Below, in pieces: positions 75 through 9,976 of a stretch of 9,976 bases of DNA. The first letter of the stretch is position 1, and each line of letters opens with the position of its first letter. Below the pieces are notes generated by a model. That model had not been told where the DNA came from and searched no databases. It was given only the letters and a program-made list of their open reading frames with translations. Origin of the DNA: a virus (taxonomy: Duplodnaviria; Heunggongvirae; Uroviricota; Caudoviricetes); IMG/VR virus record IMGVR_UViG_2778260993_000012; one strand, given 5' to 3'. Position numbers and translations under genes: made by a program.

Positions 75-1361
75 TTACCCCACTTTCTTATGGGGCATAC
101 ATGGGACACTTTCAGATAGTCTTTTGTTAAGGAGTTCTATCTGTTCGTGATTGTTGTCTTTCATCCATGCTCCGTAAACATTGAATACCATTTGTGCGTT
201 TGTGTGGCCCATCTGGCTTGCGATAAAACTAGGATTAGCTCCAGCGGCAAGTGACCAGCATGCATAAGTATGCCTGGATTGGTACGATTTTCTGTGTCTC
301 AGACCTGCGCGTTTTAAGATACTTGTCCATGACTCCCTGATGGAGTCAACTTTGTAGTGAGGTCCAGACAACTGCTGCTGTTTTATTACCTGAGGGCTAA
401 AAACAAAAGTACATTTATGCACAGCAGTTCTCCCATATTCCCTCTGCTTTACCTCTACAGAATGTTGCTTTCCAAGCATGGTCATTTCCGCCTGGCTTTT
501 AAGAGCATCAATAGCTGGTTGAACCAGATGAATTGTCCTTCCGGTGCCAGCATCGGTTTTTGGTGGAGTGAATTCGCCAAGTTTTGTATAATTTCTACGG
601 ATGGTTATAGTCCTTGCTTTAAGGTCTATATCTTCCCATGCCAGCGATACCAACTCCCCGTGACGAATACCCGTGTATACAGCGAGAATCCACAGGTTTT
701 TTGTTTGTTGATGACGGCAAGCCTCAATAAAACGAATAAATTCGTCACGGGTGAGAGGATCTGGTTTTACCTTGGACTTTTTTAAGGGAGCCAGACCGTT
801 AAATGGGTTTCCTGAGGTATAACCATTATCTGTTGCAAATTGAAACATTCCAGCTATGGTTGTCATATAGTAGTTTACCGTGACCACTGAGCGCCCTTTT
901 ATGGAAGAAGTCTTTCCATTAGAAAGCTTTTGGTAACCGGTCAACAAATCTCTCCTTACGAAAAGTAAATCCTCTTTTGTTATGGATGAAACCAGTTTTT
1001 TTTCACCTAACATTGGTAACATGTTTTTAATTACTGACTGGTAACGGTTAAGTGCATTCGCACAAATCTCAATTTTCTTAAGGTCCAACCATTTTTCCGA
1101 AAGTGCCTTAACGGTTATCTCTCTTTTTCCCAGACCAAAGTGTTTCAGGTTAGGGGAATTAGGGAACTGCGCGGCGTAGTCGAAACTCCCCATTCTGATT
1201 GCAAAACAAACTGAAGTGCGAAGCTCACCAGCGATCTTCCGGTTTTTGGCGGTGTCAGGAACACCGAGGTTTTCTCTGACACGTTTGCCATTATAGTGAA
1301 ACCATATACGGAGTGATCCTCCATGGTTTTCAACGCCTGTCGGGTATGATGCGTTACTCAT
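75..1361 (-). CDS. int: Phage integrase, tyrosine recombinase of the lambda family (428 aa)
   Basis: Complete ORF. The N-terminus (SLRIWFHYNGKRVRENLG) looks like an arm-type DNA-binding domain. The C-terminal catalytic region has the conserved Arg (TGIRHGEL), the His/Arg box (SRHTYA) and a terminal Tyr region (HTNAQMVFNVYGAW). GGGAGG ribosome-binding site 6 nt upstream of the ATG at 1361. Sits at the end of the element next to an excisionase, as in lambda. Confidence 0.9.
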   Translation of the reverse strand: MSNASYPTGVENHGGSLRIWFHYNGKRVRENLGVPDTAKNRKIAGELRTSVCFAIRMGSFDYAAQFPNSPNLKHFGLGKREITVKALSEKWLDLKKIEICANALNRYQSVIKNMLPMLGEKKLVSSITKEDLLFVRRDLLTGYQKLSNGKTSSIKGRSVVTVNYYMTTIAGMFQFATDNGYTSGNPFNGLAPLKKSKVKPDPLTRDEFIRFIEACRHQQTKNLWILAVYTGIRHGELVSLAWEDIDLKARTITIRRNYTKLGEFTPPKTDAGTGRTIHLVQPAIDALKSQAEMTMLGKQHSVEVKQREYGRTAVHKCTFVFSPQVIKQQQLSGPHYKVDSIRESWTSILKRAGLRHRKSYQSRHTYACWSLAAGANPSFIASQMGHTNAQMVFNVYGAWMKDNNHEQIELLNKRLSESVPCMPHKKVG

Positions 1362-7434: not shown

Positions 7435-8127
7435 TTAATTGTGTCGCTTAAGGGTTTGTGACTGACTGATTAAGACCTTCCCAAAGACCATAAACCGGTG
7501 TTCGTTTTCGCTGGTAATTCCCCATTCACGGTAAATCTGGTTATCAGAAATCACCAGTAGTTTGTCAGGTATCATTTGCAGTCGTTTGACATAAATTTTA
7601 TCATCAAAACCAAACACATAGATACCATCCCCATCAAACTGATTGATACTGATATCAACGAAGATGAGATCTCCTGGCTCAATGGTTGGACACATACTGT
7701 CCCCACGAACGTTGATAACTTTAATGTGATTGGCTGGTCGTCCTCCAAACATCGATACAGCATTATCAGTTATGTATTCAATGGCATGAATCACATCAAT
7801 GACATCACCGCCCTGGATAAGGCCATTTCCCGCACTGGCACTGACATCCAGCATTTCAATACGGAATACATCCTTCACCTGCGCAACATCCTCACCAGTA
7901 CTGTTTTTACATACAGTATTACTTTTGAAGTCTGAGGTAAAGAGATCTGCAATATCAACACCTAAGCTCCTGGCAATATTACTCAGGGCTTGTTCAGTGA
8001 ATTGTTTCTGCTTACCTGTTTCCAGGCGTGAGATATTCGCCGCATCCACTCCTATTGCTTCAGCGAGATCGGCGATTTTCATGTTCTTCGCCTGGCGAAG
8101 TTGTCTGACTCGATTTCCTATGTTCAT
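7435..8127 (-). CDS. cI-type phage repressor: N-terminal helix-turn-helix (XRE) domain plus C-terminal S24 (LexA-like) autopeptidase domain, 230 aa
   Basis: The N-terminus (VRQLRQAKNMKIADLAEAIGVDAANISRLETGKQ) is a helix-turn-helix. An Ala-Gly cleavage site lies in SASAGNG. RGDSMCPTIEPGDLIFVD carries the catalytic Ser, and VKRL the likely Lys. Divergent from a Cro-like gene. No Shine-Dalgarno sequence before the ATG. Confidence 0.9.
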   Translation of the reverse strand: MNIGNRVRQLRQAKNMKIADLAEAIGVDAANISRLETGKQKQFTEQALSNIARSLGVDIADLFTSDFKSNTVCKNSTGEDVAQVKDVFRIEMLDVSASAGNGLIQGGDVIDVIHAIEYITDNAVSMFGGRPANHIKVINVRGDSMCPTIEPGDLIFVDISINQFDGDGIYVFGFDDKIYVKRLQMIPDKLLVISDNQIYREWGITSENEHRFMVFGKVLISQSQTLKRHN

Positions 8128-8224
8128 GCGTTTATTACATTTCTTTATTGCGCGTTAAGCAAATCAACTTGCGCAAAATATTTGCGTGAAATAATATGCT
8201 TATCACGCAATATGTGGAGGTTAT
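8128..8224. promoter_or_regulatory. oR-like divergent control region between the repressor and the Cro-like gene
   Basis: Operator-like sites of the same family as oL: TTGCGCGTTAAGCAA (8148-8162), palindrome TTGCGCAA (8169-8176), ATGCTTATCACGCAA (8196-8210) and inverted repeat TTGCGTGA...TCACGCAA (8182-8210). Candidate rightward promoter: -35 TTGCGC (8169-8174), 18-bp spacer, -10 TAATAT (8193-8198). Candidate leftward promoter: -10 TGTAAT (minus strand, plus 8134-8139), 6 nt from the repressor ATG. Confidence 0.55.
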
Positions 8225-8485
8225 ATGCAATCACCATTACGAAATGTGCGTAAGGCGCACGGATTTACTTTGCAGCATGTTGCTGCGGGTGTTCAGGTTA
8301 ATCCAGCGACGCTGAGTCGTATTGAGAGACTGGAACAAATTCCATCTATCGATCTGGCAGAGCGTCTGGCCAATTTTTTTAAGGGAGAAATCAGCGAAAT
8401 GCAGATTCTCTATCCTGCTCGCTTTCAATCTAGTCAAAACCGGAATGAGTTAAAACCACAGGAAAAGGAGGTAAGCCGTGGGTAA
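8225..8485 (+). CDS. Cro-like / YdaS-like helix-turn-helix regulator (86 aa)
   Basis: GGAGG ribosome-binding site 5 nt upstream of the ATG. Helix-turn-helix motif (FTLQHVAAGVQVNPATLSRIER). Divergent from the repressor. Overlaps the next gene by 8 nt. Confidence 0.75.
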   Translation: MQSPLRNVRKAHGFTLQHVAAGVQVNPATLSRIERLEQIPSIDLAERLANFFKGEISEMQILYPARFQSSQNRNELKPQEKEVSRG

Positions 8486-9029
8486 GCATCACTGGAAAGT
8501 GGAAAAACAGCCTGAGTGGTACGTGAAAGCGGTCAGAAAAACTATCGCGGCGTTGCCGGGTGGTTACGCTGAAGCAGCTGAGTGGCTGGATGTAACAGAG
8601 AACGCTTTATTCAATCGCCTTCGTGCCGATGGCGATCAGATTTTCCCGCTGGGATGGGCAATGATTTTACAGCGCGCGGCTGGCACTCACTACATTGCGG
8701 ATGCTGTCGCACAGTCTGCTGGTGGGGTGTTTGTATCGCTTCCTGACATTGAGGAAGTAGAGAACGCCGATATAAACCAGCGCCTGCTGGAAGTCATCGA
8801 ACAGATCGGGAGTTACTCAAAGCAGATTCGTTCGGCAATCGAAGATGGGGTAGTGGAGCCACACGAGCAGACAGCAATGAATGATGAGTTGTATCTGTCA
8901 ATTTCGAAGCTCCAGGAGCATGCGGCACTGGTCTACAAAATTTTCTGCGCTCCAGAAAAGAGTGACGCCCGCGAGTGTGCAGCTCCGGGCGTCGTGGCGT
9001 TTTGTGTCTGTGGAGAAACTAACGCATGA
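8478..9029 (+). CDS. Early regulatory protein in the cII position, possibly YdaT-family (183 aa)
   Basis: GTG start at 8478 with an AAGGAGG ribosome-binding site 6 nt upstream. Follows the Cro-like gene as in racR-ydaS-ydaT or cI-cro-cII layouts. Family call is tentative. Confidence 0.45.
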   Translation: MGKHHWKVEKQPEWYVKAVRKTIAALPGGYAEAAEWLDVTENALFNRLRADGDQIFPLGWAMILQRAAGTHYIADAVAQSAGGVFVSLPDIEEVENADINQRLLEVIEQIGSYSKQIRSAIEDGVVEPHEQTAMNDELYLSISKLQEHAALVYKIFCAPEKSDARECAAPGVVAFCVCGETNA

Positions 9030-9174
9030 ACAGTTTAACGGCAAATAACCGTTTGTCGCAACAGCTGGTGGTCAGTGTCGCTGCACACCTGTTGTTACGG
9101 CATGAATGCAGATTACCAAATCACCTGGCTGTAAGTAACCACAGAGAACTTTACCTGACTGTGGGGGGCGAGTT

Positions 9175-9354
9175 GTGCAGGAACTTAACCGCTGGTTTCG
9201 TGACGGAAGAGGACTTTATGTTCATGTTATTCGTTGGGAGCCAGAAACACAGCGCGTTATCTATCTTCGCAAAGACTACCCGCATGAGTGCTTTAGTCCT
9301 TTGTGGAAATTCAGGCGTGATTTTGTTGAGTGTGAAGGACCACCAGCATATTGA
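9175..9354 (+). CDS. Candidate small ORF, 59 aa, GTG start (VQELNRWFRDGRGLYVHVIRWEPETQRVIYLRKDYPHECFSPLWKFRRDFVECEGPPAY)
   Basis: Frame +1, not in the track. The composition looks globular (Trp, Tyr and charged residues) and a G-rich stretch precedes the GTG. It overlaps a long open frame +2, so only one of the two is likely to be real. Confidence 0.25.
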   Translation: MQELNRWFRDGRGLYVHVIRWEPETQRVIYLRKDYPHECFSPLWKFRRDFVECEGPPAY

Positions 9355-9439
9355 TTCTGCAATTCCGGGACGTTACACTGTTCAGGCACCTTATAAAACG
9401 GGTGCCGGGATTGGCGTCCTGAAATTGATTACTGAGCAT

Positions 9440-9461
9440 AACCGCGCTCATGCGGTTTTTT
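9440..9461 (+). terminator. Terminator-like hairpin with U-tract (AACCGC-GCTCAT-GCGGTT followed by TTTT)
   Basis: 6-bp stem, 6-nt loop and a T6 run on the plus strand. Weak stem. It lies between the candidate small ORF and the Rha-like gene, and inside the open +2 frame. Confidence 0.3.
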
Positions 9462-9631
9462 CGTGTCATGAGCATTACTACGCCCAAATTATGGTGGGGC
9501 GTACAGGGCCGACTTCGGTCGGGCCGGGTTCGGTAGTCTCCGGTAACGCCAACCCTGTACGTCTCACCACCTCTGTGATTGGCGTCCCATGTGGTGAGTT
9601 TTCTAAAAAACTGACTACCGGGGCTGTCACT

Positions 9632-9976
9632 ATGACTACTCTCCCAACCCTCTCTCAACCTGAAATTGCCATCGTTGATGGTCAGGCTGTTACATCTTCT
9701 TTGGCTGTTGCTGACTTTTTCTCTAAACGTCATGACGATGTTCTGAAAAAGATCCGCATTTTGGATTGTTCTCCAGAGTTTTGTGCCCGCAATTTTGCGG
9801 AGACATCAATTTTGGTACGCCAGCCCAACGGCGGTACTCGCAAACTACCTTGCTATCAAATAACCCGCGACGGCTTTGCGTTTCTTGCTATGGGTTTCAC
9901 GGGTAAACGTGCTGCCCGGTTCAAAGAGGCATACATCAATGCCTTTAACCAGATGGAGAAGAGTTTATCAGGTGCC
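9632..9976 (+). CDS. Rha-family phage regulatory protein (pRha domain), truncated at the 3' window edge
   Basis: The N-terminus (MTTLPTLSQPEIAIVDGQAVTSSLAVADFFSKRHDDVLKKIRIL...ITRDGFAFLAMGFTGKRAARFKEAYINAFNQME) matches the Rha signature as I remember it. Start placed at ATG 9632. The same frame is open back to ATG 9026, so the true start is uncertain. Confidence 0.7.
   Translation, partial: MTTLPTLSQPEIAIVDGQAVTSSLAVADFFSKRHDDVLKKIRILDCSPEFCARNFAETSILVRQPNGGTRKLPCYQITRDGFAFLAMGFTGKRAARFKEAYINAFNQMEKSLSGA

Follow-up and report, generated by a model that had tools for sequence, protein, structure and literature searches.

An Eta-Like Reading Frame across a Probable Antisense-RNA Immunity Cassette of a Lambdoid Prophage

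In a DNA stretch of 9,976 nucleotides from a virus of the Caudoviricetes (IMG/VR record IMGVR_UViG_2778260993_000012), referred to here as the window, the region upstream of a Rha-family gene probably represents an immunity and antirepressor control cassette of an E. coli lambdoid prophage of the SfV/ST64B/mEp460 type, which contains a bridging frame resembling eta of phage P4. By sequence comparison, the cassette is homologous to the PLE-seqA-CI-seqC region of P4 and to the c4-icd-ant operon of P1. A mobile module was identified from about position 9351, consisting of a promoter-like element, an IsrK/seqA sRNA with its terminator, a C4/CI antisense RNA, a 57-nt leader, and a first gene, which in this case is Rha. 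A long frame on the same strand most likely lets ribosomes read through this RNA switch, as eta does in P4. The frame crosses a real small gene and the genes of two known phage regulatory RNAs, IsrK and C4, and the locus is considered a new example of a known system and not a new protein domain.

RNA Genes in Front of Rha

A candidate isrK promoter is located on the plus strand at 9351-9379, with a -35 element TTGATT (9351-9356), a 17-nt spacer, and a -10 element TACACT (9374-9379); the predicted RNA start is at 9386. This promoter was read from the sequence and matches 8 of 12 consensus positions. It was not listed by the consensus promoter scan, because the scan threshold was set to 9 matching positions; only a weak minus-strand site was returned. 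The mobile module is bordered on the left by a homology breakpoint at about 9351, and all isrK copies are preceded by this conserved segment. In an analogous arrangement, the promoter PLE of P4 lies inside eta.

At 9386-9462 of the plus strand, a gene for an sRNA of the IsrK/P4 seqA type was identified (Rfam RF01394, 60.1 bits versus a gathering score of 50). It contains two sites complementary to C4, a1 (TTGGCGT, 9411-9417) and b1 (GATTACTGAGC, 9427-9437), and ends in an intrinsic terminator with a stem at 9440-9457 followed by TTTTTC. The hairpin with a T-run at 9440-9461 pointed out in the original prediction is this IsrK terminator. A match to c4-a1b1 (RF03163) over 9373-9425 remained below threshold with 21.7 bits versus 46.7, and no tRNA or tmRNA was found in the structured stretch.

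The C4 or P4 CI-type antisense RNA is encoded on the plus strand at 9487-9574 and matches Rfam RF01695 over its full length (1-87) with 82.3 bits versus a gathering score of 45. Its outer stem is formed by pairing of 9492-9508 with 9553-9569 and is followed inwards by hairpin 1 (9509-9522) and hairpin 2 (9528-9539). The loop of hairpin 2 carries the b' core CGGTAGTC (9531-9538), and a' (ACGCCAA, 9546-9552) is single-stranded. The fold obtained with RNAalifold from 15 homologues, including P4 and a P1-like phage, comprises 27 pairs, 12 of them with double compensatory changes and none broken. Compensatory changes across homologues were identified in hairpin 1, and hardly any variation was seen in the stem of hairpin 2. 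The 15-mers GGGCCGACTTCGGTC (9506-9520) and GGGCCGGGTTCGGTA (9521-9535), described earlier as imperfect tandem repeats, are both present, but they are the adjacent inner hairpins 1 and 2 of C4 and do not form a tandem array. The idea that the stretch is a regulatory region is borne out by the scores for isrK and C4.

The 5' stem of C4 contains a conserved AUG (9491-9493, plus strand) homologous to the first AUG of Gifsy-1 orf45, which is in frame with Rha and 47 codons upstream of it. In 18 of the 18 modules examined, this AUG was found at C4+4, in most of them in frame with the downstream gene.

Between C4 and Rha, a leader of 57 nt (9575-9631, plus strand) contains the C4 target sites a2 (TTGGCGT, 9579-9585) and b2 (GACTACCGGG, 9613-9622). 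The end of b2 is located 9 nt ahead of the Rha ATG (9632), and the site overlaps a GGGG Shine-Dalgarno motif. Additionally, GTGGTGAG in the leader (9591-9598) could pair with the 3' strand of the C4 outer stem by complementarity, providing an alternative helix. The element GATTGGCGTCC occurs twice, at 9409 and 9577; by complementarity, CGGTAGTC pairs with GACTACCG, and GGATTGGCGT pairs with ACGCCAACCC.

Among the homologous modules, 14 specificity types were distinguished. In each type, a' has a perfect complement of 6-7 nt and b' a complement of 8-12 nt (G-U allowed) in both IsrK and the leader, so that changes in the C4 loops are matched by changes in both the IsrK and the leader sites in a three-way covariation. 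The distance from the end of b2 to the ATG is 8-10 nt in 13 of the 14 types; in the Yersinia type, the ATG is covered by b2. Specificity is combinatorial, with at least six a-types and at least nine b-types. Of 16 related loci that were tested, 15 contain both isrK and C4, as does P4, while the P1-like phage contains C4 alone; the spacing between the two is about 24 nt in lambdoid loci with both and wider in P88 and P4. Two minus-strand ORFs over the RNA genes, at 9311-9733 (140 aa) and 9478-9630, are regarded as shadow ORFs.

The Long Frame and the Genes It Overlaps

Upstream of the module, a ymfL-like early gene of the CII/CP76 family with 183 codons is located on the plus strand at 8478-9029; its product matches Pfam Phage_CP76 with 53.7 bits and NCBIfam phage_reg_YmfL with 167 bits. 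The TGA of this gene (9027-9029) overlaps the ATG of the long frame (9026-9028), and the ATGA junction noted before was found in place. From this ATG, the eta-like bridging frame spans 202 codons in frame +2 of the plus strand (9026-9631), in phase with Rha and continuing into it. The frame opens after a TAA at 9020-9022 and is stop-free from 9023 to the end of the window, which confirms the earlier claim that it is open from ATG 9026 through the Rha ATG at 9632. Within 9026-9631, frame +2 contains no stop, whereas 16 and 11 were counted in the remaining frames. The judgement that 202 stop-free codons are unlikely by chance holds, with a probability of about 5e-5 computed from base composition and with homologues that do not accumulate stops.

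Nested out of frame inside the long frame, a DUF4222-family gene of 59 codons with a GTG start was identified in frame +1 of the plus strand at 9175-9354. It matches Pfam PF13973 with 51.1 bits versus a cutoff of 27, shows 12/6/36 substitutions at the three codon positions of its own frame, and is annotated as the same ORF by RefSeq in two further records (L002 and L003). This ORF had been called more protein-like than frame +2, and its profile match and codon-position signature mark it as a real small gene.

In the long frame, substitutions are distributed flatly over the codon positions, with 10/17/16 in 9026-9174 and 60/70/70 without periodicity in 9386-9631 (49 modules). A broader set of 42 modules gave 85/90/96 in the bridging-frame region, again without third-position excess. 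The coding controls were DUF4222, with the values given above, and Rha, with a signature of 29/17/93 that begins at 9632. The comparison of codon positions proposed earlier for frame +2 therefore revealed no protein-type constraint. In an NCBIfam search, no protein family was found for the frame +2 product or for YmfM, and the translation, previously described as being of low complexity, does look like junk. Upstream of 9351, the content of frame +2 differs completely among genomic contexts. Without a codon-position signature and with content varying by context, a Rha extension of roughly 200 residues as a conserved N-terminal domain, one of the two alternatives in the original prediction, is not upheld. 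To judge from these alignments, the amino-acid sequence of the long frame is unconstrained, yet the frame is kept stop-free.

In each of the 57 distinct homologues, the frame is free of stops over at least 309 nt in front of the Rha ATG. Stops in homologues had been proposed as a means to decide between the alternatives; some were found 309-351 nt upstream of the Rha ATG, and none between the promoter and this ATG. Of the codon columns which are stop-free in the window and contain a stop in another module, only 1 is in the Rha phase versus 7 and 7 in the other phases (P = 0.019, with sequences that are not independent). When all variable stop columns are counted, 1 of 26 falls in the Rha phase.

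The genes inside the frame are also devoid of stops in the bridging frame. By synonymous resampling, zero stops had a probability of 0.043 in DUF4222 and of 0.0034 in a ProQ/FinO-like gene; in two toxin-antitoxin genes on the minus strand, the values were 0.035 and 0.055. For the four overlapped genes on either strand, the joint probability is about 3e-7 if they are independent, the single values being modest (0.003-0.055). In at least six unrelated contexts, the frame begins in an NTGA overlap with the stop of the preceding gene, often with a GGAGGTG Shine-Dalgarno sequence; in three contexts, a long upstream ORF was not found at the frame start. In about half of the contexts the frame closes within 10-25 codons upstream of the promoter, and in these early-closing contexts an in-frame ATGA start with a Shine-Dalgarno sequence is located just downstream of the closing stop. 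A stop eight codons past the C4 AUG was identified in one Yersinia phage, and in one relative (L008) a 1-nt deletion breaks the long frame within 9026-9174. The second alternative proposed earlier, a small gene plus a non-coding or regulatory stretch, was correct for the DUF4222 gene and for the regulatory RNAs, but the openness of the frame exceeds chance.

In some relatives, upstream frames of 800-1500 nt are present. They were considered as real fused proteins and rejected, since they are off-frame or antisense reads of DUF4222, of the ProQ/FinO-like gene, or of a TumE/HVO_A0114-like pair.

It has to be considered that the open frame might be a by-product which is never translated. One frame would then be open by descent because the RNA genes are G+C-rich and conserved, and the upstream part would be a chance shadow ORF of DUF4222 and other genes. 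The lack of amino-acid-level constraint, the closure of the frame 10-25 codons upstream of the promoter in about half of the contexts, the frameshift in L008, the Yersinia and P1-like phages that lack the long frame, and individual P values of 0.003-0.055 all fit this explanation. However, it is unlikely in view of the in-frame ATGA start and Shine-Dalgarno sequence just past the stop in early-closing contexts, and of the other two frames, in which stops come and go freely within the alignment (7 and 7 versus 1). In addition, all four overlapped genes on either strand are stop-free in the frame (jointly about 3e-7 if independent), and the homologous P4 frame was genetically shown to be translated and important, according to a passage in PMC10111431.

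A further proposal is made more tentatively and is held with slightly more doubt than confidence: the frame might be a pure "ribosome bridge" selected only for openness, with a selection that reaches the inserted genes, namely, DUF4222, the ProQ/FinO-like gene, and the opposite-strand TumE toxin-antitoxin pair, and YmfM/SfiC of E. coli K-12 might be the truncated relic of such a bridge. Selection on the openness of the bridge would extend over the inserted genes, which would therefore be forced to avoid stops in the overlapping frame.

Rha and the Ash Profile

The first gene of the module, on the plus strand at 9632-9976 and cut off by the end of the window, encodes a Rha-family regulator or putative antirepressor. 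The product matches Pfam Phage_pRha (PF09669) with 97.1 bits, the domain starting from residue 21 counted from ATG 9632. Its N-terminus, MTTLPTLSQPE here and MATIPTLTQPE in related modules, resembles those of P1-like icd and of P4 kil. An Icd/Kil-like division inhibitor was not found as the nested first gene in the window, where the Phage_pRha match takes its place.

Frame +2 additionally matches Pfam Phage_ASH (PF10554) at residues 117-198, corresponding to nt 9374-9619, with 36.6 bits versus a cutoff of 26. Together with the openness of the frame in all homologues and its gene-like ATGA start, this above-cutoff score would be expected if the long frame were a genuine extended protein with a functional N-terminal "Ash" domain fused to Rha. 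The long form is also called in RefSeq and GenBank (WP_001087315.1 with 387 aa, mEp460_041, ST64B sb41, and Stx1 phage Ant), and Ash is listed in the literature as a protein domain of Rha/Bro proteins. However, the PF10554 match spans exactly the stretch from the promoter -10 box through IsrK, C4, and the leader, and conservation on the amino-acid level was not seen in this region (60/70/70 in 49 modules, 85/90/96 in 42 modules), whereas Rha has a third-position excess (29/17/93). Variation instead tracks the RNA pairing. In P4, PF10554 matches the obsolete "cI protein" ORF, which is now the CI RNA gene, and the real epsilon matches PF25738. Upstream of 9351, moreover, the "protein" differs wholly by context, being an off-frame or antisense read of other genes. 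A fusion of Ash to Rha is therefore quite improbable.

An origin-like element with iterons, as suggested previously, is practically out of the question: two similar 15-mers adjoin at 9506-9535 and replication genes are present downstream in related phages, but the 15-mers are C4 hairpins 1 and 2 with a copy number of only two, an A+T-rich stretch is missing (G+C 0.50-0.52), and the whole stretch is accounted for by two Rfam families.

Comparison to Related Phage Systems

The immunity region of P4, consisting of PLE, seqA, CI RNA, seqC, and nested eta/kil, has the same element order and homologous RNA families as the cassette in the window; on the P4 sequence, isrK scored 60.8 bits and C4 74.9 bits. 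The P4 long frame starts in ATGATGATG at 8767-8759 (199, 198, or 197 codons), over the stop of ORF88, and passes the isrK-like and C4 matches to kil (ATG 8365, 65 codons). In both cases, the frame start overlaps the upstream stop, and the frame is in phase with a first gene located 54-57 nt after C4. In a passage of PMC10111431 citing Forti et al. 1999 (J Bacteriol 181:5225), it is stated that eta holds a constitutive promoter, that it is translated only from an upstream promoter and in coupling with the preceding gene, and that immunity-dependent termination is prevented when eta is translated.

Several differences to P4 were identified. P4 is a satellite phage, whereas the host element here is a lambdoid prophage. 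The upstream gene is the alpA-like ORF88 in P4 and ymfL here, and the first gene is the Icd-like Kil in P4 (NCBIfam phage_ICD_like) and Rha here, in the position of P4 kil and P1 icd. The first codons of P4 kil, MATTLTPSHPEF, are similar to those of Rha, MTTLPTLSQPEI, with only about the first 10 codons being shared. The frame in the window is longer than that of P4 by a 306-nt insert containing the out-of-frame DUF4222 gene.

For the immI operon of P1 and P7, associated with the names of Citron and Schuster (1990), the order is said to be a1 b1, c4, a2 b2, icd, and ant, and the C4 antisense RNA is reportedly cut from the transcript that is under its control. Its a' and b' are said to pair with a2 and b2 over the ribosome-binding site of the first gene, with the a1 and b1 copies located upstream. 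The P1/P7 locus and the locus in the window are alike in that specificity types differ by co-varying a and b sequences, and in a P1-like phage, as here, the C4 AUG is in frame with the downstream gene (icd). In contrast, a complete IsrK with its terminator is missing from the P1-like locus, where only 39 nt resemble the IsrK 5' part, and there is no long frame upstream of c4, the frame being open for only 57 nt. In that locus, icd is located between C4 and the antirepressor gene, whereas here Rha directly follows the leader.

For the isrK-orf45-anrP locus of Gifsy-1, it was reported that IsrK, an sRNA with a leaky terminator, pairs with the region which Rfam calls C4 and activates translation of orf45-anrP, anrP being an antirepressor gene; orf45 is translated and coupled to anrP (Hershko-Shalev et al. 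2016, PMC4825925). [quoted passage not shown] The Gifsy-1 leader ORF, in which nucleotides are conserved and amino acids are not, begins with an AUG located about 107 nt from the start of IsrK (PMC4825925). In Gifsy-1, the end of orf45 overlaps anrP in an AUGA, whereas the frame from AUG 9491 continues into Rha without a stop here, which resembles the fused S. dysenteriae case noted by the Gifsy-1 authors (PMC4825925). A long frame starting upstream of the isrK promoter is not discussed in PMC4825925.

In the e14 element of E. coli K-12, ymfM starts at the same ATGA overlap with ymfL and is in the same frame as frame +2 of the window. The YmfM protein (MNSLT...) is 32% identical over 99 residues to the frame +2 product, and ymfM also overlaps an out-of-frame DUF4222 ORF. 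The e14 locus is deleted after codon 112 and contains neither isrK nor C4 nor Rha. YmfM was described as SfiC, an SOS-inducible division inhibitor, and the phenotype was attributed to the YmfM ORF (bioRxiv 10.1101/2020.11.19.390815); in a word search of this preprint, no control separating YmfM from the nested DUF4222 ORF was seen. A position of ymfM equivalent to that of icd was considered and dropped, since the RNA cassette is absent in front of ymfM in K-12 e14, and ymfM is the 5' part of the long frame. If YmfM/SfiC should indeed be the relic of a bridge, the division-inhibitor phenotype may have to be assigned anew, with the relic peptide and the nested DUF4222 ORF as the two candidates.

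A Model for the Cassette

In the lysogen, the internal promoter would give rise to IsrK, and read-through of its terminator would yield a transcript from which C4 is processed. By pairing with a2/b2, C4 would block initiation at 9632 and/or at the orf45-like AUG 9491, leading to premature termination. IsrK would act as a target mimic titrating C4, as found for Gifsy-1 IsrK. The 202-codon frame is most likely the counterpart of P4 eta, spanning the linker, the out-of-frame DUF4222 gene, the promoter, IsrK, C4, and the leader in phase with Rha. On transcripts from the early promoter, ribosomes coupled from ymfL translation would translate the long frame and, by analogy to P4, would mask the IsrK terminator and C4-dependent termination; as a consequence, Rha and the downstream replication genes would be expressed despite immunity. 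According to this model, the openness of the frame alone would matter, and not the encoded peptide.

Distribution and Annotation

The module matched in 1,781 of 5,426 complete E. coli genomes and is carried by thousands of E. coli, Shigella, and Salmonella prophages. Its annotation is inconsistent, with "Rha", "antirepressor", or "peptidase" of 340-387 aa in some records and "ash family proteins" in others; DUF4222 is called only sometimes, and annotation of the two RNA genes was absent from every record examined. Many annotations and some papers assume a fusion of Ash to Rha, and in published surveys the Ash profile is taken either for P4 epsilon or for a protein domain without a known function. 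In this analysis, the profile maps onto the IsrK-C4 RNA cassette and the obsolete P4 cI ORF. The cassette is known in kind and is widely misannotated as long "Rha" or "Ash" proteins.

By the comparisons made here, P4 eta/kil, P1 c4-icd-ant, and Gifsy-1 isrK-orf45-anrP, which were studied separately, are joined in one architecture. For the prophage, the prediction is that translation of a frame which is indifferent in sequence would make early transcription immune to its own antisense-RNA switch.

Setting and Extent of the Open Frame

The window corresponds to the early region of a lambdoid prophage, with genes for an integrase (75-1361, minus strand), Ead/Ea22-like, DUF2303, and DUF551 proteins, an S24-peptidase/HTH repressor (7435-8127, minus strand), a Cro-like HTH protein (8225-8485), and a YmfL/CII-CP76 protein of 183 codons (8478-9029, plus strand). 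The region in question, 9026-9631, is directly followed by a Rha-domain gene on the plus strand (9632-9976, the window end). Escherichia phage 1720a-02 and E. coli chromosomes match most closely (~98-99% identity), ahead of mEp460, cdtI, ST64B, SfV, and Stx phages at 78-88%; a match is present in 1,781 of 5,426 complete E. coli genomes.

The originally described 202-codon stop-free frame was confirmed. Frame +2 opens after TAA 9020-9022 and runs without a stop through the Rha ATG (9632) to the window end, and its ATG 9026 overlaps the ymfL TGA (9027-9029) in an ATGA junction. Over 9026-9631, the three forward frames contain 0, 16, and 11 stops, and the chance of 202 open codons is ~5e-5 from base composition alone.

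Genes Nested within the Frame

Two plus-strand RNAs were identified by Rfam, isrK at 9386-9462 (60.1 bits, gathering score 50) and the C4 antisense RNA at 9487-9574 (82.3 bits, gathering score 45). The C4 fold was compared across 15 homologues, P4 and a P1-like phage among them; 12 of its 27 pairs show compensatory double changes and none is broken. The hairpin with a T-run (9440-9463) noticed originally is the IsrK terminator. The 15-mers at 9506-9535, originally placed in a possible origin-like or regulatory region, are present and represent C4 hairpins 1 and 2. The candidate isrK promoter, TTGATT-17 nt-TACACT (9351-9379), with the RNA start 7 nt 3' of it, is conserved, yet agrees with the consensus at only 8 of 12 positions and is absent from the promoter-scan list. 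The small GTG-start ORF in frame +1 (9175-9354, plus strand) proved to be a real gene, with a DUF4222 match of 51.1 bits, substitutions of 12/6/36 by codon position in its own frame, and annotation of the same ORF by RefSeq in other genomes.

Additionally, the left half of the IsrK terminator (9433-9450) recurs in the spacer before C4 (9469-9486) as an 18-nt imperfect direct repeat (78% identity). A minus-strand ORF of 140 codons (9311-9733) lies opposite IsrK, C4, and the start of Rha and is probably a shadow ORF cast by the conserved RNA region; in P88, a minus-strand hypothetical protein is annotated at the equivalent position.

For comparison, 80 IMG/VR loci were fetched by the Rha N-terminus, giving 57 distinct upstream sequences. 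Among these, homology to the window begins abruptly at ~9351; promoter, IsrK, C4, leader, and Rha move as one unit 3' of this point, and many unrelated sequences are found 5' of it. Of 16 related loci tested, 15 have isrK and C4 together, as does P4; in the P1-like phage, C4 is present and the IsrK-like part is limited to a partial 5' segment. Some prophages contain tandem IsrK-C4 cassettes of differing specificities, each preceding its own Rha-type gene (locus L056, 1255-1443 and 2115-2303; also the L028 upstream gene).

An Open Frame without Protein Constraint

A protein extension of Rha by ~200 amino acids, one of the explanations offered originally, is contradicted by the substitutions at the three codon positions, which are 29/17/93 for Rha (9632-9976) and flat in frame +2, with 60/70/70 over 9386-9631, 10/17/16 over 9026-9174, and 85/90/96 in a broader set of 42 modules. 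Because these counts are flat compared to Rha and DUF4222, amino-acid-level constraint is absent from frame +2.

It had also been proposed that stops ahead of the Rha ATG in homologues would support a small gene plus a noncoding region. Some homologues do close 309-351 nt upstream, but all 57 are open for at least 309 nt, including variants with C4 only 66-84% and the spacer ~30% identical. Where the frame closes early, an in-frame ATG is found at about -300, nearly always in an ATGA that overlaps the stop of a long ORF 5' of it, and often with a GGAGGTG Shine-Dalgarno; this junction type was seen with at least six unrelated upstream genes. In an alignment of 42 distinct modules, the codon columns where a stop is present in some sequences but not in others amount to 0+1 for the Rha phase, 7+5 for the second frame, and 7+6 for the third; new stops given the window's own state are 1, 7, and 7 (binomial P = 0.019, a modest statistic from sequences related to each other).

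In some relatives, additional genes separate ymfL from the promoter, namely DUF4222, a ProQ/FinO-like gene, or an opposite-strand TumE/HVO_A0114-like pair, and here the frame is stop-free for 945 to >1500 nt. By synonymous resampling, the probability of no stop in the overlapping frame, again a modest statistic, is 0.043 for DUF4222, 0.0034 for the ProQ/FinO-like gene, and 0.035 and 0.055 for the two minus-strand genes. Exceptions are a stop 8 codons past the C4 AUG in one Yersinia phage, a frame-breaking 1-nt deletion in one close relative, and the P1-like phage, from which the long frame is absent. As judged from these comparisons, frame +2 is kept open though its amino acid sequence is unconstrained, with a nested out-of-frame DUF4222 gene, a frame start of the coupling type, and avoidance of stops.

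The ProQ/FinO-family RNA-chaperone gene (51.7 bits; L011, 816-1208, also in L014) is located directly 5' of the IsrK-C4 cassette, and its product might help antisense pairing. In L037, the TumE toxin and its HVO_A0114-like partner (498-953 and 859-1146, minus strand) lie between DUF4222 and the isrK promoter, and the plus-strand frame crosses both without a stop. In the K-12 prophage e14, which has lost IsrK, C4, and Rha, ymfM (L093, 2823-3161; window 9026-9352) represents the first 112 codons of the ATGA-coupled frame. It is annotated as a cell division inhibitor with SfiC phenotype and overlaps the out-of-frame DUF4222 ORF (L093, 3002-3181); in the text of a bioRxiv preprint on YmfM, as covered by a term search, no control separating the two was found.

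Pairing of IsrK, C4, and the Leader

GATTGGCGTCC occurs twice in the window, in the IsrK hairpin-2 loop (9409-9419) and in the 57-nt leader (9577-9587), both copies being complements of the C4 single-stranded element ACGCCAACCC. The C4 loop CGGTAGTC (9531-9538) has a perfect complement in GACTACCG (9613-9620) and, if G-U pairs are counted, also matches GATTACTG of IsrK. This layout is the scheme of P1 c4 (a1 b1/a' b'/a2 b2) and P4 (seqA/CI/seqC). Fourteen specificity types were compared: the window, six IMG/VR variants, ST64B, the Stx1 and Stx2a phages, P88, a Yersinia phage, an e14-like prophage, and P4. In all, IsrK and leader alike contain a perfect 6-7-nt complement to a' and an 8-12-nt complement to the b' loop (G-U allowed). 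In 13 of them, b2 lies over the Shine-Dalgarno of the first gene and stops 8-10 nt short of its start codon; in the Yersinia type it spans the start codon itself. The a and b specificities are reshuffled among phages; ST64B, for example, combines the L056 a-type with the L011 b-type. By sequence, these are two RNA genes with covarying complementarity to each other and to the leader, and with b2 on the ribosome-binding site.

The Rfam c4-a1b1 model matches over isrK, with 44.1 bits in P4 and a weak 21.7 bits in the window; the homology of IsrK to seqA and of C4 to CI was already noted (PMC3632133, PMC4825925, PMC10111431). In Gifsy-1, IsrK G28/G31 pair with C162/C159 (PMC4825925). These pairs correspond to 9413/9416 with 9550/9547 of the window, and therefore the "orf45 3' end" of that paper is the C4 a' element.

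GTGGTGAG (9591-9598), a leader segment flanked by a2 and b2, is the complement of the C4 outer stem's 3' strand (9563-9570). All 15 types have a 7-9-bp counterpart, with covariation in P4 (GCTATCGCC/GGCGATAGC) and the P1-like phage, which points to an alternative helix in the transcript before processing. In Yersinia phage vB_YpM_41, a ryfA RNA match (134.6 bits; L090, 149-447, minus strand) lies ~1 kb 5' of the cassette.

The P4 Precedent and a Proposed Mechanism

In phage P4, the homologous frame begins in an ATGA overlap with the ORF88 stop (ATGs 8767, 8764, and 8761, giving 199, 198, or 197 codons) and runs past the isrK-like match (8692-8615) and C4 (8507-8420); inside it, a frame of 65 codons begins at ATG 8365. 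The two frames are eta and kil. According to the account of Forti et al. 1999 in PMC10111431, a constitutive promoter inside eta yields a transcript that ends early via CI and seqA interactions, Kil can be produced on read-through, eta is translated solely on transcripts from the upstream promoter and in coupling with the upstream gene, and Eta translation prevents termination. The window has the same anatomy, with ymfL corresponding to the P4 upstream gene, 9351-9379 to PLE, and Rha to kil. P4 Kil is itself Icd-like, and the first residues are alike in form (window, MTTLPTLSQPE; related modules, MATIPTLTQPE; P1-like icd, MATIPTPTHPEF; P4 kil, MATTLTPSHPEF). The window region is a lambdoid-prophage case of an already known type of system. 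The anomaly originally noticed is real and has a specific, precedented explanation.

By inference from P4, P1, and Gifsy-1, the internal promoter would produce IsrK in the lysogen, and C4 by read-through. C4 would block initiation at 9632, and perhaps also at the conserved orf45-like AUG 9491 (47 codons upstream of the Rha start and in frame in the window), leading to termination, so that the Rha-type antirepressor would stay off; IsrK would titrate C4. Once the early promoter is derepressed, ribosomes arriving from ymfL by coupling would translate the bridge and mask the IsrK terminator and the C4 targets. Because ribosomes would cover these elements, transcription is proposed to extend into Rha and the replication genes independently of immunity.

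The "Ash Domain"

The Pfam Phage_ASH match (residues 117-198, nt 9374-9619) falls on the -10 box, IsrK, C4, and leader. In P4, PF10554 matches an obsolete "cI protein" ORF (8168-8584, minus strand; 59.7 bits) overlying the CI RNA, and the true epsilon (derepression) protein (7888-8175) matches PF25738; one survey of P4-like satellites took PF10554 as the epsilon profile. Since PF10554 overlies RNA elements in both the window and P4, the conservation of the "Ash domain" is, on this evidence, imposed by RNA function. The window region reveals systematic mis-annotation.
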